Part shown: positions 100-49,185 of the stretch, piece after piece
How the letters are laid out: the number at the start of each line of letters is the position of its first letter
Position numbering within the stretch: position 1 is the stretch's first letter
DNA from: Parcubacteria group bacterium Licking1014_17
GTDB lineage: Bacteria > Patescibacteriota > Minisyncoccia > 2-02-FULL-40-12 > IGHO2-01-FULL-4-A
NCBI GenBank assembly: GCA_007376485.1
Contig: VMGJ01000005.1
Coordinates: 1-50,524, forward strand
Direction of reading: 5' to 3'
DNA: 50,524 nucleotides
Notes under the pieces: model-generated
What the model was told of the DNA's origin: nothing
What the model saw: the letters and a program-made list of their open reading frames with translations, nothing else
Databases searched by the model: none
Program-made: the position numbers and the translations under genes

Positions 100-280
100 C
101 ATTTCGGACGAGTAATTTTTTCTTTTTCCAAATCTGTGATACAATAAGAAGTGAACCCAATCCAATACGCTTCGCGATTTTTATTACAACCTAATCGTTG
201 TAATCTCGAAGGGGCAACTTCTGTCAATTTCGCGCAAGCGGGATTGGGTTCGCAGGGTTGTCCCTTTGAGTTATAAAAAC

Positions 281-1678
281 ATGAATTACAAAAATTGCGC
301 AATTTATACTCGTGTTTCAACAGACATGCAAGCGGAAAAAGAATTTTCCTCTTGCGAAGCCCAAGAGCAAAAAATTCGCTCGTTTATTGCGAGCCAAAAT
401 GATTGGCAAGTTTTTAAAATTTACAATGATGCTGGATTTTCCGGGGCAACCCTGCAACGACCGAAAATTCAGGAATTGCTTTTAGATTTGAAAAAAGAAA
501 AAATTGACGTGGTTTTGGTTTACAAAATTGATCGGCTCACTCGTTCGCCGAAAGATTTTTACCAACTGATAGAATTTTTTGAGCAAGCAAAAATTGATTT
601 TATTTCCATTACGGAAAGATTTGATACTTCTACGCCAGCAGGAAGATTGCTTCGCAATATAATGCTTACTTTTTCGCAGTTTGAACGAGAACTAACCAGC
701 GAGAGAACCAAAGACAAAATGTTAGAGCGAGCCAGAAAAGGTTTGTGCAATGGCGGTTTTACTCCTTATGGATATTCACGACAAAATAAAAAACTTGTTG
801 TAAATTCGAAAGAAGCAGAGGAAATAAAATCAATTTTTGAAACTTATATTGAAACTGGTTCATTGGCGAAAACTTATAGTATGTTGAAAGGACGAAACAT
901 AAAAAGCAAGTTTGGCAAAAATTTCTCAAAAACGGTCTTGGCTTATCTTTTGCGAAACATTGTTTACATTGGAAGGATTAAACACCGAAATGAAATTTAC
1001 CAAGGCGTTCATGAGCCAATAATTTCAGAAGAAATTTTTGCCCTTGCTCAAAAAATCCATAAAGAAAAACTGAAAAATTTTAGAGTATACAAAAATTTTC
1101 TTTTCGGCGGACTGATAAAATGCGAGAAGTGCGGTTCAAATATGAGTGGCAGTTTTAGCAATAAGCACAGAGATGGAAAATTTGACCGCCGATATTATTA
1201 CTATCGTTGCACTTCCACCACAAAATTTGATTGGCAAAGTTGTCCGGTAAAACAAGTTTCCGCCGAAAGATTAGAAAATTTTTGTTTAGAAAATTTAGAG
1301 CGAATTTTGCTGGATAAAAACTATATTGAAAATCTTGTTTTTCGTCTAAACAACGACTCAGAAGCCCGACACCAAAATGGGTGCGAACTAACGAAGTCAT
1401 GCTCTAAATTTTCCGCCGAAAACATCACGAACACTTTAAAATTTTTCGTTGACGGAATCAAAAAAACTAAGGGAATTGAAAGAAATCTTTTTGCCAAAAA
1501 ATTTCTTTCAAACATTTTTTACTCGCCCGAAACAATTAAATTCCGCTTCATTTTGCCCCAGAGCGGCGGCGAAGCCGCCGCGAATGCGAGCCCAGCCCCG
1601 CTTGTGGCGGGGCTGGGCGAGCGAACGTCGTCGCAACCCATCCACTTATTTGTCTTGTTACAATTATACTGCCATTAA
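281..1678 (+). CDS. Large serine recombinase (resolvase N-terminal domain, recombinase domain, zinc ribbon)
   Basis: The ORF runs 266..1678. The first ATG at 281 gives MNYKNCAIYTRVSTDMQ, the catalytic-Ser resolvase N-terminus. Also present are YKIDRLTRS and a Cys-rich ribbon (CEKCGS...YYYYRC). The last ~48 codons are encoded by the GC-rich repeat arm, so the native C-terminus may be displaced. Confidence 0.8.
   Translation: MNYKNCAIYTRVSTDMQAEKEFSSCEAQEQKIRSFIASQNDWQVFKIYNDAGFSGATLQRPKIQELLLDLKKEKIDVVLVYKIDRLTRSPKDFYQLIEFFEQAKIDFISITERFDTSTPAGRLLRNIMLTFSQFERELTSERTKDKMLERARKGLCNGGFTPYGYSRQNKKLVVNSKEAEEIKSIFETYIETGSLAKTYSMLKGRNIKSKFGKNFSKTVLAYLLRNIVYIGRIKHRNEIYQGVHEPIISEEIFALAQKIHKEKLKNFRVYKNFLFGGLIKCEKCGSNMSGSFSNKHRDGKFDRRYYYYRCTSTTKFDWQSCPVKQVSAERLENFCLENLERILLDKNYIENLVFRLNNDSEARHQNGCELTKSCSKFSAENITNTLKFFVDGIKKTKGIERNLFAKKFLSNIFYSPETIKFRFILPQSGGEAAANASPAPLVAGLGERTSSQPIHLFVLLQLYCH
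1535..1633. repeat. Right arm of the perfect 99-bp inverted repeat
   Basis: Exact reverse complement of 1..99. It lies between the convergent recombinase and LAGLIDADG-like ORFs, and both ORFs read into it. Confidence 0.9.
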
Positions 1679-9622: not shown

Positions 9623-12532
9623 TTATAGGACGAAATTCACCAGTTTATTTTTGACGAAAATTGTTTTTTTAGGGGGAGTAGGCAGATATTTCTGCACATT
9701 CGGGTCAGCTTTCGCTTTTTCTACGACTTCTTCCTCGCTTGAGTCAAAATCCATTTCGATAACCGCCCGCAATTTTCCGTTAACCTGAACGGGTATTTTT
9801 GCTGTTTTATCTTTAATTAAAGACGGGTCATATTCCGGCCACGGTTCAATATGCACCGATTTTTCGTGTTTCGAAATGTTCCGCCAGATTTCTTCGGTGA
9901 TGAACGGCGCGAAGGGCGCCAGTAGTTTTATAAATGCCTCAAAATCACTCCGCGTAATTTCATTGGCTTTTTCCATCTCATTAAGGAATATCATCAGAGC
10001 GCTGATTGCCGTATTATACCGAAGATTTTCAATATCCTCAGTCACTTTTTTAATTGTTTTGTTAGTTATTACTGGCAAACCACCCCCTCCATCACCGATT
10101 TTTTTATTTGCCGCCGCCCAAACCTTACCGAGAAATCTGGCAATGCCGATAATACTATCATCCCTAAAATCCCCCCCCTGTTCAAACGGCCCAATAAACA
10201 TTAAATACATTCTCAAAACATCCGCGCCGTATTTTTCAATGTATTCGTCGGGATTTACGATATTCCCCTTTGACTTTGACATTTTCGCATCTTCTTTTAT
10301 TAAAAGCCCGTGGGCGCGGAATTTATGGAACGGCTCTTCAAAATCTATCAGTCCCCAATCTTTAAATGCCATTGTCACAAATCTGGTGTAGAACAAATGC
10401 AGAACCGAGTGCTCGGCCCCTCCGATGTACATATCCACCGGCAGCCATTTTTTTGTGAGTTCCGGGTCAAAAGGGATTTGCCCTGAGCTTGTCGAATGGG
10501 CGGAGTGAGTCGAAGGAACCTGTCCTGAGCGAGCGGAGTGAGCCGAAGGATAGCGGAAATAGTACCAAGCCGAATCAAAGAAGTTATCCGAAACATCCGT
10601 CTCGCGTTTAGCCGGTCCCCCGCATTTTGGGCATTTGGTTTCGTAAAATTCTTTAACCGTGGTAAGCGGAGAGGCATCGGTCCCGGTCGGCTTAAAGTCT
10701 TTTACGTAAGGCAAAACAACTGGCAAATCTTCTTCCGGTACCGGCTGCCAACTGCATTTGTCGCAATGAATCATCGGAATCGGCGGTCCCCAATAACGTT
10801 GCCGTGAAATCAGCCAATCGCGCAGGCGGTAAGTGGTTTTAAATTCTCCACCGACCTTTTTGGTTATTTCTTTTGCATCAACAAGCGGTGCGTCGCTGAC
10901 CGGCAAATCAAACTTTTTCGCAAACTCCCTATCTCTTTCATCGTGCGCCGGCACAGCCATAATCGCACCAGTGCCGTAATCTCTCAGGACATAATCAGCA
11001 ATCCAAATCGGAATTTCCTGATTGTTTGCCGGATTAATCGCCTTAACGCCTTTCAATTCAACACCAGTTTTGCCTAGTCCTGAGCCCGTCGAAGGGTCTT
11101 TACCTTCGGTGATTCTTTCTTCGTTTGATTTGTTTTTTGCCCGTTCAATGTATTTCTGCACCTCTTCCCAATTCTCTATTTTCGATTCAAGATTTTCGAT
11201 TTCTTCATATTCTGGTGCCAACACCATGTAAGTTGTCCCAAACAATGTATCCGGGCGGGTCGTGAAAACGCGAATAGAATCGATGCAGTGGTGGAGCACT
11301 TCTGGCTCGGTATTACCGCTGAAATGAGGTTTACTGGCATTGTAATCAAAAAGTTCTCCACCGATCAACTTATACAGAGAATATGTGTTGTCTTGCGGTA
11401 CAGTATCATCAGATAAATCCCTGAGAATAGAAATTTCTCCAGCGTTGCACTTAATTTTTTCAGGATTAAATTTCCAATCGAATGTGTGCAGCGGGAAGTT
11501 TTCATCTATGAATCGATTTTCTGAATAACACCCGACCAGAACTGTTTTTCGAACTGGGGTTGAAAGTTTTTCAAGAATTTTAAGTACTACAACACCTCCA
11601 AGACTATGGCCCACAATGATCGTATTTCCATCAAAAGGTACATTTTTTAATACCGCCTCAACTTGATCCCTAACAATCGGGTCTTTTGTGTTCGGAAGTT
11701 CAGGAACATAAACCCTGGCCCCTCTTTTTTCAAGTTCTTTTTTTAGCCATGGAAAAAAATTGTTTTCTGGAGAACCGGTATAACCGTGTAGCAAAACATA
11801 TGATGGAGCAATAGCCCCAGCAATTTCAAAATCAATCCCCGCTCCTTCAGATTTTCCTATCCAGTTTCTCTGGGCGATTTTAACCCGCTCAGACCAATTA
11901 ATCCAGTCCAGATTTTTCAGAAGTTTTTCGGCATAATCCGTAATTTTGAAAAACCACTGCTCCAGTTCTTTCCTTATAACTTCTGTTCCGCATCTTTCAC
12001 ACTTGCCGGCTATTACCTGCTCGTCAGCTAGCACTGTTTTGCACGACGGGCACCAGTTGACCGGCGCTTTTTTGCGGTAGGCTAAACCATGCTTGAACAT
12101 TTGGACAAAAATCCACTGGGTCCATTTGTAATATTCGGGGTCGTAGGTTTCCAGTTTTTCGTCCCAGGCGAAACCATTGCCTATTGCTTTCACCTGCTCG
12201 TAATATCTTTTTTCGCTTTTTTTCAGCAAATCAACCGGATGCGTGCCGATTTTAATGGCGTAATTTTCGGAATGGATGCCGAATCCGTCCAGCCCGAACG
12301 GCTCAAAAACATCATAACCCTGCATTCTCTTGAATCGTCCGTAAATGTCTGAACCCGTGAAGGCGTACATATTGCCGACATGCAGCCCCTCCGCCGAAGG
12401 ATACGGAAACATCATCAGATTATAAAACTTGCCCTTGCCTTTTGGGTGCGCCAAATCCGGCTGGTATATTTTCTCCTCCAGCCACTTCTTGAGCCACTTC
12501 TTTTCGGTTTTTTGATGGTCGTAGGATTTCAT
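9623..12532 (-). CDS. leuS: Leucyl-tRNA synthetase with an inserted alpha/beta serine-hydrolase domain
   Basis: PYPSAEGLHVGN (HIGH variant), the CP1 hallmarks VFTTRPDTLFGTTYMVLAPE and GTGAIMAVPAHDERD, and KMSKSKGN. The likely start is the ATG at 12532 (MKSYDHQK), which removes the overlap with the upstream gene. The inserted domain is at 11276..11812. Confidence 0.92.
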   Translation of the reverse strand: MKSYDHQKTEKKWLKKWLEEKIYQPDLAHPKGKGKFYNLMMFPYPSAEGLHVGNMYAFTGSDIYGRFKRMQGYDVFEPFGLDGFGIHSENYAIKIGTHPVDLLKKSEKRYYEQVKAIGNGFAWDEKLETYDPEYYKWTQWIFVQMFKHGLAYRKKAPVNWCPSCKTVLADEQVIAGKCERCGTEVIRKELEQWFFKITDYAEKLLKNLDWINWSERVKIAQRNWIGKSEGAGIDFEIAGAIAPSYVLLHGYTGSPENNFFPWLKKELEKRGARVYVPELPNTKDPIVRDQVEAVLKNVPFDGNTIIVGHSLGGVVVLKILEKLSTPVRKTVLVGCYSENRFIDENFPLHTFDWKFNPEKIKCNAGEISILRDLSDDTVPQDNTYSLYKLIGGELFDYNASKPHFSGNTEPEVLHHCIDSIRVFTTRPDTLFGTTYMVLAPEYEEIENLESKIENWEEVQKYIERAKNKSNEERITEGKDPSTGSGLGKTGVELKGVKAINPANNQEIPIWIADYVLRDYGTGAIMAVPAHDERDREFAKKFDLPVSDAPLVDAKEITKKVGGEFKTTYRLRDWLISRQRYWGPPIPMIHCDKCSWQPVPEEDLPVVLPYVKDFKPTGTDASPLTTVKEFYETKCPKCGGPAKRETDVSDNFFDSAWYYFRYPSAHSARSGQVPSTHSAHSTSSGQIPFDPELTKKWLPVDMYIGGAEHSVLHLFYTRFVTMAFKDWGLIDFEEPFHKFRAHGLLIKEDAKMSKSKGNIVNPDEYIEKYGADVLRMYLMFIGPFEQGGDFRDDSIIGIARFLGKVWAAANKKIGDGGGGLPVITNKTIKKVTEDIENLRYNTAISALMIFLNEMEKANEITRSDFEAFIKLLAPFAPFITEEIWRNISKHEKSVHIEPWPEYDPSLIKDKTAKIPVQVNGKLRAVIEMDFDSSEEEVVEKAKADPNVQKYLPTPPKKTIFVKNKLVNFVL

Positions 12533-12534
12533 TT

Positions 12535-13311
12535 TCAAATTTTCTCGTTCGGTAGCACGTCCCACATGAAATCAAACCATTGTTTATAGTCGCGAGCCAG
12601 AGTTTTATCCTTCAAAATGAAGATAGTTATATCCTGGTCAAGGGCATTAACATTAATTCCGGAATATATTGCTACATATTCGCCAAATATATCTATAGAT
12701 GAATCATTGGAATATTTTTGCGGCAAAAACTTATAGGGTTTGCCAACTGCCTTGATTACTTCGGGATGTTCTTTTATTTGCCAGTCGTAAATCAAATGGC
12801 TTTTGATTTTTTTCTTTACTACTTCCTGCCCGGCTCTGACGGCAAAAGTTTTTATTCTCGGGTCAAACCATGTTCCCTTGCTGTTAATGCCATAGATATC
12901 TTCGCTGGTTTCCAGAATCAGGTTGATGTAATTTTTTAATCCCCCAACGCCTTTAAAAATATAAACCGACTGCGAGGCGCTTTTTTCAGAAAATTTACTT
13001 TTCAAACTGGGTAGGATATCTTCAACGTCTTTAATGCGGTCATTTGCTAATTCCTGGAGCTTGTCTGGGTGGGATGGCGCGAAAGTTAACACCTTTTTCG
13101 GCAATACCTGATAAACCAATCCCTTGGCGATCAGGCACTGTAAAGCGTCGTAGGCATTGCGCCTGTGTACGCCCGATTTATTCGTGATTGCTTCAATGGA
13201 ACTTTCCTTCAGTTCCACCAAAGCCAAATAAATCTTCGCCTCGCTGGGCGTGAGCAAGTTACTGGAAACCAAAACCTCCGTTGCCAATAATTCATTGTAA
13301 GCCATAAGCAA
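12535..13311 (-). CDS. TrmB-family transcriptional regulator
   Basis: N-terminal winged HTH (LTPSEAKIYLALVELKESSIEAITNKSGVHRRNAYDALQCLIAKGLV) and a C-terminal domain of TrmB length. Confidence 0.65.
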   Translation of the reverse strand: MLMAYNELLATEVLVSSNLLTPSEAKIYLALVELKESSIEAITNKSGVHRRNAYDALQCLIAKGLVYQVLPKKVLTFAPSHPDKLQELANDRIKDVEDILPSLKSKFSEKSASQSVYIFKGVGGLKNYINLILETSEDIYGINSKGTWFDPRIKTFAVRAGQEVVKKKIKSHLIYDWQIKEHPEVIKAVGKPYKFLPQKYSNDSSIDIFGEYVAIYSGINVNALDQDITIFILKDKTLARDYKQWFDFMWDVLPNEKI

Positions 13312-23857: not shown

Positions 23858-24039
23858 CAGGTTTAAAAATTTGCAGAAATATAGTTTTTCGCAGACGTTA
23901 GATTTCCCAGCGTGAAATCTAACTTGATGCTCGGCGGTTTTTAGTTTTTGTTTTCGGGGATATTTTAACAAAAACTAACCGTGCAAAATCGCCTCGCAAC
24001 ACTGCTCAAAACTATATTTCTTCCGAGTTTAAGCACTAT

Positions 24040-24122
24040 GCCTGGGTGGCGGAATGGTATACGCGAAGGACTTAAAATCCTTTGCCCGCAAGGGCTTGTG
24101 GGTCCGAGTCCCACCCCAGGCA
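24040..24122 (+). tRNA. tRNA-Leu (UAA), class II
   Basis: Acceptor GCCTGGG/CCCAGGC, D arm GCG/CGC, anticodon arm AAGGA-CTTAAAA-TCCTT, a long variable arm, and T arm GTGGG-TCCGAGT-CCCAC (unusual C at position 55). Confidence 0.85.
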
Positions 24123-24124
24123 CA

Positions 24125-25099
24125 ATGAACGCCGCAGATATTAAAATTCCACGAGACGTCAAAGCATATAGTGAAGACGGCCGGCCGGCCATCGGTGAGC
24201 TTTACGCTGCCTATCTTGAACTTGGCAATTCGCCGGGTTTTGTTGTTGAAAAAATTTACGACCGAATATATAGCGAGCCGGAAAAAACTTTGCCGGTAAT
24301 CGCCGTAAAAACCTTAGAAGCCGGAAAATCTATTTGGGTGATTTCTGGAATTCATGGTGAAGAGCCGGCGGGGCCAGTTGCCATCGCCCGGAACATAAAA
24401 ATATTCATTGAACTGGCTAAAAAAGGAATCCCCCTGATTGTTTTGCCCTTGTGCAATCCGGCGGGTTACGCCAGAAATTGGCGTTATTTATTTGATAAAA
24501 AAAATTACGATAAGGGCAGGAGCATCGGTGACAGCGACCATTTAATACCAGACGAGAAAAATTCATCAATGCCGCATCTGCCGGAACCATCCAATCATGA
24601 CTCGGAGATTTTTACGGAGTGGATTGTTAAAACAGCTTCGGTTTATCCACCGCTCATAGTGATTGATTTACACGAAGATGACCCGGAAACAATTTTGGAT
24701 CCTACCGAATCACTCAGATTTCCCCACTCAACATATGTTTATTCCCATGGCGAACTCGGCGCCGGTGACCCGATTGCCAAGGAAATAGTGAAAATACTCA
24801 AAAAAAATAATCACAAACTGGCGCCGGATGGCGCAGAAACCAGGTTTGGAGAAAAGATTGTCGGTGGCATTATATCAGGCGCCAAAGATTATTCAGTTGA
24901 CCATCTGTTGTCGTCAAGGGAAATTTTCTATAAGGGCAAAAAAATTGCCGGGCCGTCGGCTAAAAGCGTGGTAGTGGTTGAAACACTGACCGAAGGTCCC
25001 GGCATGAGCTTTGAAAATAGAATCAAAACCCATGGAGAGATTTTAGACTCCTTGGAGAGGTTTTGGGGGATGGCAGGGGGTCAAGCTATTAAACCATAA
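24125..25099 (+). CDS. M14-like zinc carboxypeptidase / succinylglutamate-desuccinylase-aspartoacylase-like hydrolase
   Basis: The ORF 23981..25099 is trimmed to the ATG at 24125 because its upstream part overlaps tRNA-Leu. Zn-ligand-like motifs VISGIHGEEPAG and DLHEDD are present. Confidence 0.55.
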   Translation: MNAADIKIPRDVKAYSEDGRPAIGELYAAYLELGNSPGFVVEKIYDRIYSEPEKTLPVIAVKTLEAGKSIWVISGIHGEEPAGPVAIARNIKIFIELAKKGIPLIVLPLCNPAGYARNWRYLFDKKNYDKGRSIGDSDHLIPDEKNSSMPHLPEPSNHDSEIFTEWIVKTASVYPPLIVIDLHEDDPETILDPTESLRFPHSTYVYSHGELGAGDPIAKEIVKILKKNNHKLAPDGAETRFGEKIVGGIISGAKDYSVDHLLSSREIFYKGKKIAGPSAKSVVVVETLTEGPGMSFENRIKTHGEILDSLERFWGMAGGQAIKP

Positions 25100-38523: not shown

Positions 38524-39027
38524 TCATTTTAAACGCTTTAACATTGACCTTTGGTCATCCAAATACGCTATCTTTGCGCCAGTTCTTTTCAATAAAATCG
38601 AACATTTCGGTGGTAATGCGGGCGATAAAATAGCCATCAGCGATTTTCTATCACTAAGAAATTTTACTAAGCCGGCATAATCCCCATCGCTGGCCACTAA
38701 AACGGCTTTATTAAATCTTTTTTCATAATAATCAACCGTCGCTTTTAAAACAAGATCGGCGTCACAGTTGCCCTTTACTTTTCCCGAACCATCATAAGTA
38801 ATTTCCTTATATACAAGTACATACCCCGACTCTTGAAGGTAAGTATAAAGATTTTTATTTTTCAGAACGAGACCTATGAAAAGATACGCGGTTTTAACGA
38901 AATATTTTTCCTCAAGCCAAATTCTAAATTTTTTAAAATCCAGCTCCCAACCTAAACTTTTAATGCCCTTGTGTAAATTGGCTCCATCAATATACGCGAA
39001 ATTATTTTCTGCAATTTTATTCTCCAT
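38524..39027 (-). CDS. NYN (LabA/DUF88-like, PIN-related) domain protein
   Basis: AYIDGANLHKG, GNCDADLV and VLVASDGDYAGLVKFL match the NYN acidic-residue pattern. The start overlaps the upstream RM gene stop by 11 nt. Confidence 0.7.
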   Translation of the reverse strand: MENKIAENNFAYIDGANLHKGIKSLGWELDFKKFRIWLEEKYFVKTAYLFIGLVLKNKNLYTYLQESGYVLVYKEITYDGSGKVKGNCDADLVLKATVDYYEKRFNKAVLVASDGDYAGLVKFLSDRKSLMAILSPALPPKCSILLKRTGAKIAYLDDQRSMLKRLK

Positions 39028-41854
39028 TTATTTGTCTATTTTCTATTATTTTTATCTCCTCTGGTGTGAGGTTGTAAAGTTTATAAACTTCTTCGTCAAT
39101 TCGGTGGTCGGTTTTGTCAATTTCGGATTTTAGGCTTTGCCATTTTTCAGAGTTTTCGGGCAATTTATGAAATTCTTTATTAAGGGATAGGATTTTATCT
39201 ACTAAGTTTTCAATATTATTTTGTTGATCTGCCGTAGCTCTATAAATCGGAAATTGCCGAAAAACCAAAACCCCTATGTCTACGCCTACGCCTCTTTTTT
39301 TACCATTAACATTGAACCAATTTCCCGCAAATTTTGAATTTAGAACTCCTAATAAATATTTCAAACTATAGTTTTTATCTTTCTGTACAATGACAGAAAA
39401 AGAAAAACCTACGTAATATTTATCTTCGTCGTAATAAAATCCCGGCGACAAAAACATGCCCTCACATATTAATTTTGGATTTTCAAAATATTTGCTTTCT
39501 CTCGGACGGTGTAGCCCGTACGGCTTATTCGATGAAGTTATAAACCTCTTCATTTTATCCAAATGATTTTTAATATTCGGATATAATCCATCAGTTATCT
39601 TTGATTTAGCTTCTTTATCTGCGTAAATAAGATACTCATTATTAAACAATATGAAGTATTTTCCGACATCACTGACGTCTAGATATTTTTTTACTAGTTT
39701 CTTTTCTTCGGCACTCAAATGTAAATCATTGACTTCTTTTTTAGATAAAACGAAAACGCCATCACCTGTTTTAAAATTATTGGTGGCATCTGCTTGTTTC
39801 TTGCTAATTTTGTCAGTGGCTTCTACAACTCCCTGAGAAACGTCATAAATATCACCAAGAGAGGTACAGTTTTTTAAATTAGCATCACTCGATACTTCAA
39901 AATTAATTTTATCGCCTACTATTATTTTTTGATAAGGAATCACCTTTTTATTCTTTTCATCTATAAAATCGGCAAAATTATCTTTCGAAATTTTGATTAA
40001 AATAGTCTTGTCGGCTTTATCCGCTTGGCGTTTTTGATAAATGTGGATTATATGCTTTCCGCTGACATCACCAAAAACCTTAATGTCGTCTAAATCAACG
40101 GCTTTTATTAAAATCAATTCATTTTTTATCCTCCTGATCAACTTTGAGGCGCCTGCGCTTTTTAGAAAATAACTATTGGTAATAAATCCAATGAGTCCGC
40201 TTTCTTTTACTACATCTATCGCACGATGTAGAAAAAAATACCAAAAATCCATTTTGCCCTGATAATATTCTCTATAACCGCTACTCTTTATTGGCTCAAA
40301 AACGTCTTTGTTATCCATTTCCTTTAAGTACGGCGGATTTCCTATAACTACATCAAACCCACCCTGCTCGAAAACTTCTCGAAATTCTTCCTGCCAGTTG
40401 AATGGTTTCTTGTCGCGGAAATTAGGACCAAAGTACTTCTTTAGTTCCTCGTCACTTCCTGAAATAAGTGAATTACCAACATGAATAGTGTGCTCCAACG
40501 CCGGTAGCTTCATTCGGCTATCTAGTGAATTAAGCAAGAGGTTCAATCTTGCAATTTCAACCGCTTGCGGGTCGAGGTCAACGCCGTAAATGTTTTGCTC
40601 TAAAATCTGAATTTTTGTAAATACATTGGCGGGTTTTTTATCAAACTCCTTATACTTCTCCGCGATAACATCAAGAGCTTTTATTAAAAAAGAACCAGAG
40701 CCACAAGCGGGGTCCAGCACTCTGATTTTTTTCAAATCGAATAAAGAATGGCATTTATCGAGAACCGGCTTCAAAGTTTGGGAAACAATATAGTCAACGA
40801 TATATTTGGGCGTGTAATAAATACCTTGCGATTTGCGCTTGGATTTACTCTTTTCCTCGGATTTCTTGCCCTGAACATAGCTTAAATACTGTTCGTAAAT
40901 ACCGCCGAGAACGTCGGCGGAAATCGCCGAGAAATCATAGCGATAGCCGTCTTCGGTGTTATATAAGCCCCCAAGGACAGCAATCATAGGGGTATCTTCA
41001 AGTTTCCACGTTTCGCAGTCGTGTTTTTCAAATAATTTTGAATCGTATTCTTTGTCAAAGTATCTAAACACCTCAATTAATAATTTATAAACATCAGCTG
41101 TTTCAGCACTCTTTTTATAACTGTGAAGTATACCTTCTAAATGTCTGGATTCCAGCCCTCTATCTTCGGCGGTTCGGATAAAGATAAGCCGGTCCAGTAT
41201 TTTTTGAACACCCTCGTCTATAATTTCCTGGTCAACTGTCCATCTGTTGTTTTTTCTGAAACTTTTTTCTATTATCACCCTCCATTTCATTAAGTCCTCA
41301 AAAAGTTTTTCGCCGACCTGTTTTCTCTTGGCCAACTTTCCCCATTCTTCGGCTTTCTCGTGCAATAATTTCTTCTCAAAACTTTCTTTTGATAACAACC
41401 ACAACTGGTCGAACTTTTCTAGATATTCCCCACACTTAATTTCAAAAAACTGATTTACAGCAACATTTCTTGGCGGAACTTCTGCGTTAAAAACCTTAAT
41501 GGATTCAAAATCTGTAAGTATTGCCCAAGTAACTCCCTTGTTCCAGCTGTAATTTATGGCTTGTTCCGCCCACTTCCATTCATCTAAATCAACTTTCATC
41601 GCCTTGGCCTCCAAAAACATCACGGGAATGTGATTTATCTGAAAAGCAAAATCTACCCGACCTTTCGACGAGCTTTCTTGCGGGATAACCTCGTCTAAAT
41701 TGCTCTGATTCCACCCCAAAGACTCAAAAAGCGGCATTATGAATCCACTTATGGTCTGGGCTTCATTGTACTTTTTATCTTGCCCGGAAGCGTGGGCTTG
41801 TTGATACTTTTCGAGAAGTCTTTTAATTCTATCTTTCGCCTCTTGTTGGGTCAT
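39017..41854 (-). CDS. Type IIG restriction-modification enzyme (fused PD-(D/E)xK nuclease, N6-adenine methyltransferase and specificity domain)
   Basis: N-terminal GRVDFAF...FLEAKAMK (D...ExK), methyltransferase motif I VLDPACGSGSFL, motif IV VVIGNPPY, and a TaqI-like C-terminal target-recognition region. Confidence 0.8.
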   Translation of the reverse strand: MTQQEAKDRIKRLLEKYQQAHASGQDKKYNEAQTISGFIMPLFESLGWNQSNLDEVIPQESSSKGRVDFAFQINHIPVMFLEAKAMKVDLDEWKWAEQAINYSWNKGVTWAILTDFESIKVFNAEVPPRNVAVNQFFEIKCGEYLEKFDQLWLLSKESFEKKLLHEKAEEWGKLAKRKQVGEKLFEDLMKWRVIIEKSFRKNNRWTVDQEIIDEGVQKILDRLIFIRTAEDRGLESRHLEGILHSYKKSAETADVYKLLIEVFRYFDKEYDSKLFEKHDCETWKLEDTPMIAVLGGLYNTEDGYRYDFSAISADVLGGIYEQYLSYVQGKKSEEKSKSKRKSQGIYYTPKYIVDYIVSQTLKPVLDKCHSLFDLKKIRVLDPACGSGSFLIKALDVIAEKYKEFDKKPANVFTKIQILEQNIYGVDLDPQAVEIARLNLLLNSLDSRMKLPALEHTIHVGNSLISGSDEELKKYFGPNFRDKKPFNWQEEFREVFEQGGFDVVIGNPPYLKEMDNKDVFEPIKSSGYREYYQGKMDFWYFFLHRAIDVVKESGLIGFITNSYFLKSAGASKLIRRIKNELILIKAVDLDDIKVFGDVSGKHIIHIYQKRQADKADKTILIKISKDNFADFIDEKNKKVIPYQKIIVGDKINFEVSSDANLKNCTSLGDIYDVSQGVVEATDKISKKQADATNNFKTGDGVFVLSKKEVNDLHLSAEEKKLVKKYLDVSDVGKYFILFNNEYLIYADKEAKSKITDGLYPNIKNHLDKMKRFITSSNKPYGLHRPRESKYFENPKLICEGMFLSPGFYYDEDKYYVGFSFSVIVQKDKNYSLKYLLGVLNSKFAGNWFNVNGKKRGVGVDIGVLVFRQFPIYRATADQQNNIENLVDKILSLNKEFHKLPENSEKWQSLKSEIDKTDHRIDEEVYKLYNLTPEEIKIIENRQINGE

Positions 41855-46525: not shown

Positions 46526-47095
46526 TTACCGCATTTTCAATTCCGGAAATTCTGGATCTGGCCAACCCCAGGTGGTTTCGTCCCATCGAAATTGGCCCCG
46601 ATTAAATACGTAGGATTTAGTAAAAGTAATTTGACCAGGGGCTTTATCAATTGCTGGAACTATACTGAGGTCTAGTTTAAGTGTTGCCTCAGCTAGAGCT
46701 GGCGGGTCATCTTCTAAAAAATTAAAGGATGAAGCGGTTCTTTTGTAGTGAGGTAAATTGTTAGGGGCTATTCGATAAGTATCCTGGTAGATTTTCTCTC
46801 CCTGGTTTTTTCTATTTACAGTGGCCCGCCACGAAACGAGAGCTGGTATATTTGAGGCGTTTGAAAACCAAAAATAAGTATTATTATTATTTTTATCAAA
46901 AATCATATTAACATCCACGGCTGGCAACATTTGGTTTTCCACCATTCTTTCTGTAGCGCGAGTATATTTCTTCAGCCAATTTAAAGTTACAGCCAGAACA
47001 ATAACACTGGCTACTGTGGCTCCAAACTGAAACCAACCAGCCCAATTAATAGAGGGGTTCTGAGTAAGAAAATGATGATAGGGGTATACTGGCAT
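46526..47095 (-). CDS. Single-pass membrane protein, unknown function
   Basis: One TM (WFQFGATVASVIVLAVTL). The start lies 2 nt after the HNH gene stop. Confidence 0.45.
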   Translation of the reverse strand: MPVYPYHHFLTQNPSINWAGWFQFGATVASVIVLAVTLNWLKKYTRATERMVENQMLPAVDVNMIFDKNNNNTYFWFSNASNIPALVSWRATVNRKNQGEKIYQDTYRIAPNNLPHYKRTASSFNFLEDDPPALAEATLKLDLSIVPAIDKAPGQITFTKSYVFNRGQFRWDETTWGWPDPEFPELKMR

Positions 47096-47097
47096 GG

Positions 47098-47847
47098 TTA
47101 AATTTTAATATCTTCTTTATTGCTCTTGCCGAGATTACACTCTTGGCATAAGGTCTGTAAGTTATCAAGTGTGGTTTTTCCGCCTTTTGAAAAAGGCACT
47201 ATGTGATCTATGTGTAGTTTGATACCTAAATCTGTCGCGGGGCTTCTGCCGCAGAAAACACAACGGAAACTATCCCTATCTAAAACACGAATTCGCATAC
47301 TCATCGGGATATTTCTCGAATAACTGATTTTTATATGTTGTGTTTTTCCTTCAGTAATAATGCGTGTATCAGTCTCCGCTGTTTTTTCAGCCATTGGTTC
47401 AACAACTATGCTCCCGCCCATTTTATGCTCAATAAATTTAAGACAAGCATTCGACCAGCCACTAAATTTATAACGATATGTTCCGAGGCTAAAAGCTGGG
47501 TTTGAGTTTTTCCATTCTGTGCAAGATGGGCGATGGCCTAATTTTTTCCATATCCTATCCATTTCTTCAAAAAGCTGTTCTTCTGTTCGATCCAATAAAT
47601 TACTTCTCGATTTTCGAGGTAATAAATCTGTGCCGTTTTCACAGAGTTTGTCTTTGAGGGCAGTTAGAGCTTTATACCAAGAACCAAACTCATTTTTTAC
47701 TGTTCCAGAACTGATTTTGGAGACCTTGTTGAATTCGTCAGAACTAAATTCCCGATATCCGAAATTTACTGCCACTTTTTCAAGTTCGGCAAGAATTTTT
47801 TCTCGAGAGATTTTATCCGATCTTTGTCTCTGAAATTGATAGTCCAT
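47098..47847 (-). CDS. HNH endonuclease with two N-terminal homing-endonuclease-associated repeats
   Basis: Two ~50-aa repeats (…FNKVSKISSGTVKNEFGSWYKAL… and …WKNSNPAFSLGTYRYKFSGWSNAC…) and a C-terminal HNH domain: CVFCG...HIDHIVPFSKGGKTTLDNLQTLCQECNLGK. Confidence 0.8.
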   Translation of the reverse strand: MDYQFQRQRSDKISREKILAELEKVAVNFGYREFSSDEFNKVSKISSGTVKNEFGSWYKALTALKDKLCENGTDLLPRKSRSNLLDRTEEQLFEEMDRIWKKLGHRPSCTEWKNSNPAFSLGTYRYKFSGWSNACLKFIEHKMGGSIVVEPMAEKTAETDTRIITEGKTQHIKISYSRNIPMSMRIRVLDRDSFRCVFCGRSPATDLGIKLHIDHIVPFSKGGKTTLDNLQTLCQECNLGKSNKEDIKI

Positions 47848-48220
47848 AGCTATTATTTTAATAAATCCTCAATGGAAGCACAGGAGGCTTTAGGGCTTCT
47901 CCACTCCATGACTGATAGGGACGACGGCCTGCCTGCGCAGGTAGGGACTCGGCTTCGACTAAAATTTTGCCGTCGCAAAACTTTGTCTGGCCACCGCCTC
48001 GCGGTCTCGCCTACTGGCTCGACATCGCTCCAGCGTTCTTGTCCTATCTCATCTCATAAATTAATTAAACAGAGACTGCGCTAAAGGCAATTTCTATTTA
48101 ATTATTGCGGGGACGACCCTACTATGCCCAGCAAGCCGGTGGGGCTACGGGAGGGCAAGGCAAGGACTCACCATAGCCTCTCGCCCCAACACAAGCCGAA
48201 ACAAACTTCAATCAATAATG

Positions 48221-48510
48221 CGCGGGTGACGGGATTCGAACCCGTGATCTCCGCCGTGCACGCAATCCACTATTTTCATAATGGCGTGGACTATATCTTC
48301 GCCGTATCCGCTAATCGGCGGATTTAGGTGCCTCGGTATCTAGTCTCTACGGCGCCCCGCCTAAGTTTTGCTCTGCAAAATTTAGGCAGGTTCCCACGGT
48401 ATTGCCCTCTATGGGTTTCACCGTTATCCCGAAGTGTTCACCCAGCGGTTTCCCACTGGGGCTGCAATTTCTTACAGGGCGGCGCTTTAAACCAGCTAAG
48501 CTACACCCGC
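48221..48510 (-). tRNA. tRNA-Asp (GUC) interrupted by a group I intron
   Basis: The 5' exon is 48510..48474: GCGGGTG-TA-GCTT-AGCTGGTTTA-AAGC-G-CCGCC-CTGT. The 3' exon is 48258..48221: CAC-GGCGG-AGATC-ACGGG-TTCGAAT-CCCGT-CACCCGC-G. Joined, they give a 75-nt cloverleaf with the loop CUGUCAC. Confidence 0.85.
48259..48473 (-). ncRNA. Group I intron (215 nt, no ORF) in the tRNA-Asp anticodon loop
   Basis: The 5' exon ends in U, which can wobble-pair with the G of intron GCAG (P1: CUGU/GCAG). The intron ends in G. The core-like strings GTAGAGACTAGATACC and GAAGATATAGTCC match my recollection of the Azoarcus and Tetrahymena cores. Confidence 0.8.
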
Positions 48511-49185
48511 ACTATTCATAATTTTCAAAGCACTCACGAATTTATTATACTTCCTTTTTAAATATGTTTCAGCCGTTGTATTATTATACATTAAATTAAA
48601 CAAGGCAAGGGAGTCTTTTAATGAAAATACCAAGTCAAATCCTCTATTTTTTTGGTTTATGTATCCTCCCTTGACGCAATTCTTTAAAGATTTTTTTAGT
48701 CCTTCAAGAAATTCCCTGCTGCCTGAGGTAAAAAGTGAAGTCACCCGCCATCTAAATTTCTGCCTATCCTTATTCCAGTATTTTCCGAAACTGATACAGC
48801 CATCCCCATCAAAATAACCCCTAACGAAATGACTCATGTATTTAGCCGGCACACTCGGAAACTTTACGGACAGGCTTTTATTCTGTTTTATTCCGAAATT
48901 GGATAATTTTGCTATTATTTCTTTTCCGCCTATCTGTAAACGGTATCGGTTTTTCCAGTTTGAATTTAATCTATTTTTCTCATATTTAGATATTTTATGT
49001 TCGGATTTTAATAATTTTCTAATATTTTCTATTATTTCTTTATCTGTTGATGTAAACTCTAAAAACCAGCTTCCCCTTGGATTTTTATAGACTGCGCCAT
49101 CGGCGAAGATATAACCCAAAACATATGCCATTTCCGGCGACCATTTATCAAAAAATTTCTTATTGTAATTTTTAAATATTGGCAT
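48496..49185 (-). CDS. Double-motif LAGLIDADG homing-endonuclease-family protein
   Basis: MAYVLGYIFADGAV and FVRGYFDGDGCIS. The last four codons plus the stop (gcg ggt gta gct tag) are the first 15 nt of tRNA-Asp. Confidence 0.8.
   Translation of the reverse strand: MPIFKNYNKKFFDKWSPEMAYVLGYIFADGAVYKNPRGSWFLEFTSTDKEIIENIRKLLKSEHKISKYEKNRLNSNWKNRYRLQIGGKEIIAKLSNFGIKQNKSLSVKFPSVPAKYMSHFVRGYFDGDGCISFGKYWNKDRQKFRWRVTSLFTSGSREFLEGLKKSLKNCVKGGYINQKNRGFDLVFSLKDSLALFNLMYNNTTAETYLKRKYNKFVSALKIMNSAGVA

Follow-up and report, generated by a model that had tools for sequence, protein, structure and literature searches.

The window analysed here comprises 50,524 nt of contig VMGJ01000005.1 (GCA_007376485.1) of Parcubacteria group bacterium Licking1014_17, and its reverse strand contains a leuS gene for a bacterial-type leucyl-tRNA synthetase (LeuRS) in which a second enzyme domain is nested. 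The nested domain is complete and, on the basis of its sequence and its structure model, apparently an active serine hydrolase of the YdeN/RBBP9 family. It is located at the entrance of the CP1 editing domain and behaves as an exchangeable cassette: the site stays occupied, and the history of the cassette is decoupled from that of the host gene. The reading preferred here, with a probability of roughly 0.55, is that of an added aminoacyl-type hydrolase, predicted to be active and functionally coupled to LeuRS, serving in proofreading or in the clearance of aminoacyl esters or adenylates as a swappable module that is often accompanied by a nucleotide pyrophosphatase. Residues are numbered from the GTG codon at window position 12565, which opens a frame of 980 aa; subtraction of 11 gives the numbering from Met12 (M12). 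The features needed for the argument are as follows.

9623..12532, reverse strand: leuS, bacterial-type leucyl-tRNA synthetase, 969 aa from M12; the frame extends to the GTG at 12565 (980 aa)
11822..11866, reverse strand: NWIGKSEGAGIDFEI, conserved LeuRS segment, residues 234-248, left boundary of the cassette
11276..11812, reverse strand: nested YdeN/RBBP9-type serine hydrolase domain, residues 252-430 of the open reading frame (ORF)
11783..11788, reverse strand: His260-Gly261, HG motif (YVLLHGYTGSP, residues 256-266)
11603..11605, reverse strand: codon of the predicted catalytic nucleophile Ser321 (GHSLG; GHSLGG is residues 319-324)
11408..11410, reverse strand: codon of the predicted catalytic acid Asp386 (LRDLSDDTVP, residues 381-390)
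11324..11326, reverse strand: codon of the predicted catalytic His414 (SKPHFSG, residues 411-417)
11237..11275, reverse strand: IRVFTTRPDTLFG, residues 431-443, right boundary of the cassette

An earlier sequence-only reading of this DNA had assigned the insert to the RBBP9/YdeN family. The peptides quoted there are present at the residues given for them, residues 252-430 map exactly to window 11276-11812, and the family assignment is borne out by profile and structure searches. The hidden Markov model (HMM) search of the insert proposed in that reading placed Pfam family PF06821 (Ser_hydrolase) above its cut-off of 22, with 34.3 bits (E=2.9e-8) for the insert alone and 30.3 bits for the full protein; the HMMER match spans only the N-terminal half of the profile. 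Three generic alpha/beta-hydrolase Pfam families were also above their gathering scores for the insert alone. Searching the PDB with phmmer returned YdeN of B. subtilis (1uxo) with E=1.2e-11 and human RBBP9 with E=1.5e-5. The AlphaFold2 (AF2) model of the domain has a mean predicted local distance difference test score (pLDDT) of 93.1 and a predicted template modelling score (pTM) of 0.91. When this model was used in Foldseek, ranks 1-7 were YdeN and RBBP9 chains (1uxo, 7oex, 2qs9, 9fcr), with template modelling (TM) scores of 0.85-0.90 by both lengths and root-mean-square deviations of 2.1-2.8 A; the score was 0.90 for YdeN (1uxo, E=2.3e-13) and 0.85 for RBBP9, and other alpha/beta hydrolases gave target-normalised TM scores of 0.45-0.63. 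No Pfam or NCBIfam match of the insert to the trans-editing families YbaK/ProX (PF04073), AlaX or Dtd was found.

Like YdeN (1uxo) and RBBP9 (2qs9, 7oex), the insert has about 180 aa, a lid-less alpha/beta-hydrolase fold, a GHSxG and an HG motif, Ser, Asp and His in the same order and spacing, and a conserved FPWLKKELE helix. Unlike them, it is nested in another enzyme instead of free-standing, it is only 22-24% identical to them, and it belongs to a distinct subfamily that is mostly embedded in class Ia synthetases of the candidate phyla radiation (CPR) and of DPANN. Conservation of the triad among orthologues, which the sequence-only reading had set as a test, was found throughout the 94 orthologous inserts present among the 120 nearest LeuRS: Ser321 in 94 of 94 (and in 129 of 129 inserts at the entrance site, termed type A), His414 in 94 of 94, and at position 386 Asp in 83 and Glu in 11. 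Asp386 aligns with Asp138 of RBBP9. All three residues are invariant in the alignment with 22 free-standing homologues (His414 in 22 of 22). The HG motif, which we presume from general knowledge of the alpha/beta-hydrolase fold to precede the oxyanion hole, has His in 91 and Gly in 86 of the 94 inserts; in the alignment with the free-standing homologues the His is invariant and the Gly nearly so. The Ser and the His are kept in every insertion class and every host examined, the Asp/Glu position being slightly less complete. Further residues, Gln301, Asp383, Ala410, Glu420 and Trp364, mark the subfamily and are common to the copies embedded in LeuRS, the closest free-standing copies and the copies in other hosts. 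One free-standing protein of the closest (alpha) type, P0185, has GFDLG for GHSLG, the nucleophile Ser being changed to Asp and the preceding His to Phe, and is probably inactive.

The position of the insert, described earlier as the entrance of CP1, was confirmed by alignment with the 120 nearest LeuRS, 94 of which carry an insert at the same point. The spacing from F-x-[IVL] to VFTTRPDT is 8-15 residues in 26 of these proteins and 182-203 in the other 94; from GIDFEI to VFTTRPDT it is 184 in the window LeuRS. In the alignment with T. thermophilus LeuRS, residues 12-250 of the query correspond to 1-238 and residues 431-557 to 243-359, and about 180 residues of the window protein stand where the T. 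thermophilus enzyme has a turn of four residues. The left boundary, NWIGKSEGAGIDFEI, is the opening strand of the editing domain's first beta-hairpin (T. thermophilus 224-238), and the right boundary, IRVFTTRPDTLFG, comprises the return strand of the hairpin and the Thr-rich CP1 editing peptide (T. thermophilus 243-255). Relative to LeuRS that have no insert, the whole extra segment covers residues ~249-432. In the full-length AF2 model the insert leaves and re-enters the host through two paired strands, 227-237 and 419-424 in M12 numbering. Pairwise alignments of closely related LeuRS show that identity drops directly after NWIGKSEGAGIDFEI. This hairpin is not the 'CP1 hairpin' of the LeuRS literature, a name used for the zinc-binding neck (PMC4138327).

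The fusion is genuine and in frame. The same architecture is found in >100 independent assemblies, which disposes of the frameshift or one-off chimera named earlier as a possible refutation. An intein or another self-splicing element was considered and rejected: no Hint or intein Pfam match was found, and the junction positions 249-255 and 429-432 are variable over the 94 orthologues and show no Cys/Ser/Thr or His-Asn signatures. A search for transposon-like DNA signatures around the insert gave only short imperfect repeats (11-19 nt, 74-100% identical), none of which flanks it.

The host protein is an ordinary bacterial LeuRS in most respects. It scores 823.4 bits against the equivalog profile TIGR00396 (leuS_bact, cut-off 548.4) and contains the Pfam domains tRNA-synt_1, the editing domain PF13603 (152 bits) and Anticodon_1. 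The version of the gene caller (P0023, 969 aa) starts at M12 (window 12532), and this version and the alignment to T. thermophilus LeuRS indicate that M12 is the real start. The AF2 model of the full-length protein (pLDDT 86.6, pTM 0.79) keeps the LeuRS fold; LeuRS structures rank top in Foldseek, the best being T. thermophilus LeuRS with tRNA (2bte). The following signatures of the synthetic and editing sites are present.

12371..12382, reverse strand: HVGN, HIGH-like signature of the synthetic site, residues 62-65
10931..10948, reverse strand: AHDERD, CP1 editing-site motif, residues 540-545, containing Asp545
10271..10285, reverse strand: KMSKS signature, residues 761-765

HVGN is the form of the HIGH motif in the window LeuRS as in most CPR relatives. 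TTRPDT (residues 435-440) and GTGAIMAVPAHDERD are also present and are conserved among relatives. Asp545, which we take from published work on LeuRS to be the editing-site Asp, is kept in 94 of 94 insert-bearing and 26 of 26 insert-free LeuRS. The flanking HIGH-like, CP1 and KMSKS motifs (HVGN, TTRPDT, AHDERD, KMSKS) are thus intact, as had been read from the sequence, and HVGN, KMSKS, TTRPDT and GTGAIMAVPAHDxRD are equally conserved in the 94 insert-bearing and the 26 insert-free proteins. Since the insert makes no difference to the integrity of the CP1 and synthetic motifs, the hydrolase is regarded as an addition and not as a replacement of CP1. The earlier suggestion of an 'added or replacement' activity stays tenable in its first part; its second part is not supported, the Thr-rich CP1 peptide and the HDxRD Asp being as well conserved with the insert as without it. 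Replacement of a degenerate CP1 was rejected on the intact editing motifs. The window LeuRS has nothing that corresponds to T. thermophilus residues 360-407, in the C-terminal part of CP1, or to residues 579-631, in the leucine-specific domain. A Ser/His/Ala-rich low-complexity insert, SAHSARSGQVPSTHSAHSTSSGQ, at window 10478-10546 on the reverse strand (residues 674-696), has no counterpart in T. thermophilus LeuRS; its local G+C content is about 0.50 and its AF2 pLDDT is below 50, and the loop is homologous to the hydrolase-bearing site of the valyl-tRNA synthetase (ValRS) of CPR (L029, P0195).

A survey of LeuRS from CPR, also proposed earlier, showed that the same insertion is widespread in CPR and occurs in DPANN as well. 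The nearest insert-bearing proteins are labelled Liptonbacteria, Sungbacteria, Paceibacterota, Levybacteria and similar groups. A word-indexed protein search with the insert alone returned only free-standing proteins; the fusions were recovered with the full-length query and by an exhaustive search of representatives. Scanning one genome for each species with one conserved peptide yielded at least 573 loci with relatives of the domain. Of the best 80, the domain lies in the same hairpin of LeuRS in 45 and is encoded by a free-standing gene in 32; the remainder are a LeuRS with the domain after CP1 (L042), one ValRS and one isoleucyl-tRNA synthetase (IleRS). Twelve LeuRS loci are from genomes labelled Woese-, Pace- or Nanoarchaeota (L006, L008-L013, L015, L018, L021, L030, L041). 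Their LeuRS cores form a cluster of their own, and it is therefore concluded that bacterial-type leuS and the insert were transferred into DPANN and then kept by vertical inheritance. On a neighbour-joining (NJ) tree built from the LeuRS core, the hydrolase needs about 5 changes of state over 120 tips.

The exhaustive search and Pfam scans located the hydrolase at at least five different sites of LeuRS: it stands before NWIGKS, after CP1, after CP1 together with a NUDIX domain, after KMSKS, or as a tandem pair. The IleRS of a Nanosynbacter sp. (L071:2256-6359, 1368 aa) has a GNAT domain at 144-273 and the same hydrolase at 416-593, between VYVKFKL and ISVLAWTTTPWTLP, i.e., in the homologous hairpin directly before the Thr-rich editing peptide WTTTPWTLP. 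ValRS carries the domain at a different site. The same subfamily is also nested mid-protein in TsaD (P0208), a SecA fragment (P0203) and a UvrA-like protein (P0268), each a single representative with an intact triad. Other domains share the LeuRS hairpin in some relatives, namely NUDIX, GNAT, a DUF559 nuclease-like domain and an IS200-type Y1 transposase domain. The DUF559/REase-like domain (458-573) lies in frame beside the hydrolase in a Nomurabacteria LeuRS (L037:977-4369), and the transposase domain (269-374) lies in frame in P0182. Such nuclease- or transposase-type domains could be agents of cassette mobility.

Exchange of the cassette was assessed in 131 full-length insert-bearing LeuRS. 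Resolution was poor in an NJ tree of the domain built from identities, and matrix correlation, nearest-neighbour ranks and pairwise alignments were used instead. The identity matrices of the N-terminal core, CP1 and the C-terminal core intercorrelate with r = 0.59-0.92 (N-terminal vs C-terminal core, r=0.92), whereas the matrix of the insert is uncorrelated with any host part (r about 0; Mantel r=0.03, p=0.23). When nearest neighbours are chosen by insert, their median rank by core is 11; in the control, N-terminal vs C-terminal core, the median rank is 1. Among pairs with a core identity of at least 80%, 70 of 131 have inserts that are <50% identical, with a mean CP1 identity of 83%. Four pairs (P0054/P0070, P0085/P0083, P0051/P0137, P0052/P0067) are 84-93% identical up to NWIGKSEGA, 26-40% through the insert and 63-83% over the 60 residues after it, where VFTTRPDTLFGATY is conserved. 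At the DNA level, the leuS genes of the first pair, which come from different samples (L081:2854-5898 and L082:3001-5976), are mosaic: identity is 100% in the 3' third and in one internal stretch, 80-90% in the 5' part and 30-65% in the cassette, and the upstream metG genes are 84% identical. This mosaic reflects either intense recombination in leuS or a strain-chimeric assembly. Chimeras are not a common or general cause, because the N-terminal and C-terminal cores are concordant (r=0.92). The fusion had been called stable in the sequence-only reading; this holds for the site, which is stably occupied, but not for the cassette, which has been swapped repeatedly.

The base composition of the insert, stated earlier to match that of the host gene, differs from it. 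The insert has a G+C content of 0.391, and 0.307 at third codon positions (GC3); the rest of leuS has 0.451 and 0.485, so that GC3 is 0.31 vs 0.49. Other genes of the window have a GC3 of 0.47-0.56 if they are housekeeping genes and of 0.32-0.38 if they are obviously accessory.

A canonical NUDIX domain of about 160 aa is present in 38-39 of the 94 insert-bearing LeuRS (about 40%) among the 120 nearest relatives. Its insertion point follows residue 560 of the window LeuRS (about window 10886), at the C-terminal end of CP1 (examples P0026, P0029, P0030, P0046). The window LeuRS has no NUDIX domain, and P0121 has NUDIX without the hydrolase. The NUDIX state is labile, with 18 changes on the LeuRS core tree. 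Matches of the LeuRS NUDIX insert are all weak, to YtkD/RppH/MutT and, in the PDB, to DIPP (diphosphoinositol polyphosphate phosphohydrolase). In about 8 of 42 loci with a free-standing hydrolase, a NUDIX gene abuts it or lies at most two genes away. A strict regular expression for the NUDIX box finds 2 neighbouring NUDIX genes, and an HMM built from the LeuRS NUDIX inserts finds 5.

The closest free-standing homologue, P0001 from Pacearchaeota, is 46% identical to the insert. It is encoded in an operon with overlapping stops and starts (L083:6001-10882) that consists of this hydrolase, a second hydrolase, a YbaK/EbsC-type tRNA_edit deacylase (PF04073), the nucleoside triphosphate pyrophosphatase Ham1, and an archaeal-type LeuRS (TIGR00395, 784 bits). 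This run of genes may be a free-standing supermodule for editing or house-cleaning. In the metagenome scan P0001 alone gave no match, and matches were obtained with an alignment of three sequences. The next closest homologue, P0173, has its gene 25 nt upstream of leuS; this leuS is of the bacterial type, its hairpin is short and empty, and it carries a NUDIX insert. Another homologue lies directly 3' of the gene for peptidyl-tRNA hydrolase PTH2. Adjacency to leuS was found only for the closest (alpha-type) homologues, and not for the generic free-standing ones (L048-L080). Small same-strand clusters with a free-standing hydrolase were observed at five loci (L089:2958-5678, L087:2140-4768, L086:1-4588, L088:2091-6242, L084:3645-4543), with the orders recA-hydrolase-NUDIX-recX, secA-NUDIX-unknown-GNAT-hydrolase, PTH2-hydrolase, and class II aminoacyl-tRNA synthetase-thymidine kinase-hydrolase-unknown-NUDIX-HAD.

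That the embedded subfamily works with LeuRS is argued most strongly by its fusion in many genomes together with its adjacency in others, involving two evolutionarily distinct LeuRS types. A putative deacylase function of the insert is backed by this evidence from gene neighbourhood and fusion. By the mechanism envisaged, Ser321 would attack the carbonyl of an aminoacyl group with a free alpha-amine to give an aminoacyl-enzyme, from which water would then free the amino acid, with chemistry as for RBBP9. The likely substrates would be aminoacyl esters or anhydrides that the synthetase makes or handles. One candidate is the 3' end of mischarged tRNA-Leu that is poorly cleared by CP1, and another is misactivated aminoacyl-adenylate leaving the synthetic site; the NUDIX partner of the relatives would handle the nucleotide part. 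Exchange of the cassette itself is attributed to recombination between the two highly conserved stretches beside it, NWIGKSEGA and VFTTRPDTLFG. At its 3' end, an aminoacyl-tRNA carries exactly such an aminoacyl group with a free amine, esterified to ribose. RBBP9 requires a free alpha-amine, its trap mutant (Ser75 to diaminopropionate) captures single amino acids (Leu, Ile, Phe, Tyr, Trp), and the enzyme has been concluded to cleave hydrophobic amino acids from amide, ester or thioester linkage (PMC8866121). In the reference list of PMC7730578 it is cited as a valacyclovir-activating enzyme, i.e., a hydrolase of the valyl ester of a nucleoside analogue.

Several points weigh against coupling to LeuRS in this form. 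The substrate of the insert is inferred from a human homologue with 22-24% identity. Of the residues that bind the alpha-amine in RBBP9, Tyr99 corresponds by alignment to Tyr347, Ser76 to Leu322 and the anchor Glu108 to Phe357, in a loop modelled with low pLDDT (59). The D-E-N next to Phe357 is identical to D105-E106-N107 of RBBP9, and an acidic residue at 354 or 355 is common; it is only these neighbouring acidic residues, Asp354 and Glu355, that are conserved. Gln301, Asp383, Ala410 and Glu420 are also present in free-standing copies and in those of SecA, TsaD and UvrA, and do not look like an interface specific to LeuRS. Several free-standing copies are located in unrelated housekeeping contexts (recA-recX, secA, nucS). 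The neighbouring NUDIX genes belong to heterogeneous subfamilies, which weakens the association with NUDIX but does not remove it. Finally, the search that exposed the other LeuRS sites was seeded with LeuRS flanks, and the apparent bias towards LeuRS is inflated by this.

It is possible, if doubtful, that the hydrolase, often with NUDIX and sometimes with GNAT, is a general house-cleaning or salvage module whose substrate is unrelated to LeuRS. Such an autonomous guest would lodge in permissive surface loops of, or next to, highly expressed essential genes of the gene-poor CPR and DPANN, LeuRS being a safe harbour, and would have spread between leuS alleles by recombination through conserved flanks. 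The nesting in TsaD (P0208), SecA (P0203) and a UvrA-like protein (P0268) would be expected of a guest, as would the hydrolase-NUDIX pairs between recA and recX and after secA, the signature residues shared by embedded and free-standing copies, the decoupled history of the insert (Mantel r=0.03 vs 0.92 in the core control) with its swapped cassettes, the foreign-looking GC3 of the window insert, and the unrelated IS200 Y1 transposase, DUF559 nuclease-like, GNAT and NUDIX domains in the same hairpin. It does not account for the strong excess of class Ia synthetases among the hosts (at least five LeuRS sites, the homologous hairpin of IleRS, and ValRS), and the two closest free-standing copies, which adjoin leuS of two types and in one case a YbaK deacylase, are hard to explain in this way. 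Rather unlikely is a defence embedded in its target, in which the cassette, together with GNAT and NUDIX in relatives, would detoxify inhibitors or toxins of class Ia synthetases, an arms race driving the exchange; aminoacyl-adenylate mimics (agrocin-84 type, aminoacyl-sulfamoyl and -sulfonamide antibiotics) and aminoacyl-tRNA modified by GNAT toxins are the proposed targets. MccF-type serine hydrolases and MccE/RimL GNATs are known detoxifiers of aminoacyl-nucleotide antibiotics, and the three classes of inserted enzymes parallel them; many CPR live on antibiotic-producing hosts. The turnover of cassettes at one fixed position while the genes around them stay near-identical (inserts <50% in 70 of the 131 pairs with core >=80%) and the patchy gain and loss of NUDIX (18 changes) also fit a defence, but the diversification is equally explicable as neutral recombination, the surroundings of these loci showed neither an inhibitor nor a toxin gene nor an immunity gene context, and embedding in the target has no obvious advantage against a diffusible small molecule.

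A supply of amino acids, with an RBBP9-like aminopeptidase clipping Leu, Ile or Val from scavenged peptides and feeding the neighbouring synthetic site, is improbable. The hosts are exactly the Leu, Ile and Val synthetases, CPR and DPANN are not known to have amino-acid biosynthesis, and RBBP9 is an aminopeptidase for hydrophobic and aromatic residues whose trap mutant captures Leu and Ile; however, the residues of its hydrophobic cage are not conserved, the free amino acid would diffuse so that nesting would be of little benefit, and the partnership with NUDIX/Ham1, the YbaK deacylase and PTH2 is left unexplained. Least probable of all, and close to negligible, is that the insert has no function, being a chimera of the assembly, a selfish insertion in decay, a spacer of purely structural value, or an element that is removed after translation in the manner of an intein. 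The GC3 discontinuity in the window and the mosaic, possibly chimeric leuS of one metagenome contig pair could be read in this sense, against the same in-frame architecture in >100 independent assemblies and species genomes, an invariant triad, confident AF2 models of domain and host, the missing Hint or intein Pfam match with variable junction residues, and the concordance of the cores (r=0.92).

An added hydrolase working with LeuRS, the preferred reading, invites comparison with known editing modules of synthetases, i.e., CP1 in cis and YbaK/ProX, AlaX and Dtd in trans. The likeness is that a hydrolase is attached to, or encoded beside, a synthetase, here directly before the Thr-rich editing peptide and alongside an intact CP1. 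The difference from CP1 and YbaK is that the fold and mechanism of the insert are unrelated to theirs, with a covalent serine-hydrolase triad predicted from sequence. The CP1 and YbaK sites are non-covalent and substrate-assisted. To our knowledge, all synthetase editing domains described so far belong to a few folds (CP1, INS/YbaK, ThrRS N2/AlaX type, PheRS B3/B4, Dtd), and we know of no editing domain with an alpha/beta-hydrolase fold in any synthetase, nor did the literature searched contain one. NCBIfam NF040702 (ileS_w_GNAT) describes a comparable case, a class Ia synthetase of Patescibacteria with an extra nested enzyme domain, but this model names GNAT only and not a hydrolase; the window LeuRS is without GNAT and scores 65 bits against a cut-off of 1999. 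Inteins and homing elements resemble the cassette in their in-frame position at a conserved site of an essential gene, in a decoupled history, in replacement bounded by conserved flanks and in the occasional co-residence of nuclease- or transposase-like domains (L037 DUF559, P0182 IS200 Y1). Unlike inteins, the insert has neither a Hint fold nor splice-junction residues, is predicted to stay in the mature protein, and conserves the residues of a hydrolase that acts on an external substrate.

The sequence-only reading knew of no description of this architecture. In the searchable full-text literature no account was found of a CPR synthetase with an alpha/beta-hydrolase domain, of the YdeN/RBBP9 or any other kind, and a survey of domain insertions from 2026 refers to the editing domain of LeuRS solely as an inserted module. 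In public databases, however, the architecture is abundant and partly annotated by automatic procedures, with names such as 'leucyl-tRNA synthetase/predicted alpha/beta hydrolase family esterase' (JGI), 'alpha/beta fold hydrolase' (NCBI) and ileS_w_GNAT (NCBIfam). If the activity on aminoacyl-tRNA or adenylates is true, the insert would be a new class of editing domain with covalent catalysis, and the prokaryotic members of the orphan YdeN/RBBP9 family would gain a first lead to their function. Such a hydrolase also suggests how genome-reduced episymbionts with scavenged, imbalanced pools of amino acids could gain translational fidelity or protection. Exchange of cassettes in an essential gene is interesting in its own right to protein evolution, where it represents the insertion of a domain through recombination at conserved flanks, and it matters for the use of leuS as a phylogenetic marker in CPR and DPANN. 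More tentatively, and with considerable doubt, CPR and DPANN might possess a modular system in which exchangeable cassettes (YdeN-type hydrolase, NUDIX, GNAT) occupy fixed hairpins of LeuRS, IleRS and ValRS and are swapped horizontally, possibly aided by nucleases or transposases, to give a tunable second proofreading or protection from toxins. Synthetase editing would gain from such a system a new fold and a new covalent mechanism, and in-frame mobile domains a new type.

Elsewhere, the window is densely packed with genes of translation (MetRS, ThrRS, PheT, IF-2, GatB). Genes of low GC3 (0.32-0.36) are located at 266-1678 (forward strand), 39017-41854 (reverse strand) and 46526-49185 (reverse strand); the low-GC3 genes include a large serine recombinase, an Eco57I/MmeI-like restriction-modification fusion and several small ORFs, and were probably acquired horizontally. 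A mechanical ORF of 372 aa with a GTG start at 23981-25099 (forward strand) overlaps the tRNA-Leu(taa) gene at 24040-24123, and the real start of the protein, if any, is therefore downstream of the tRNA.

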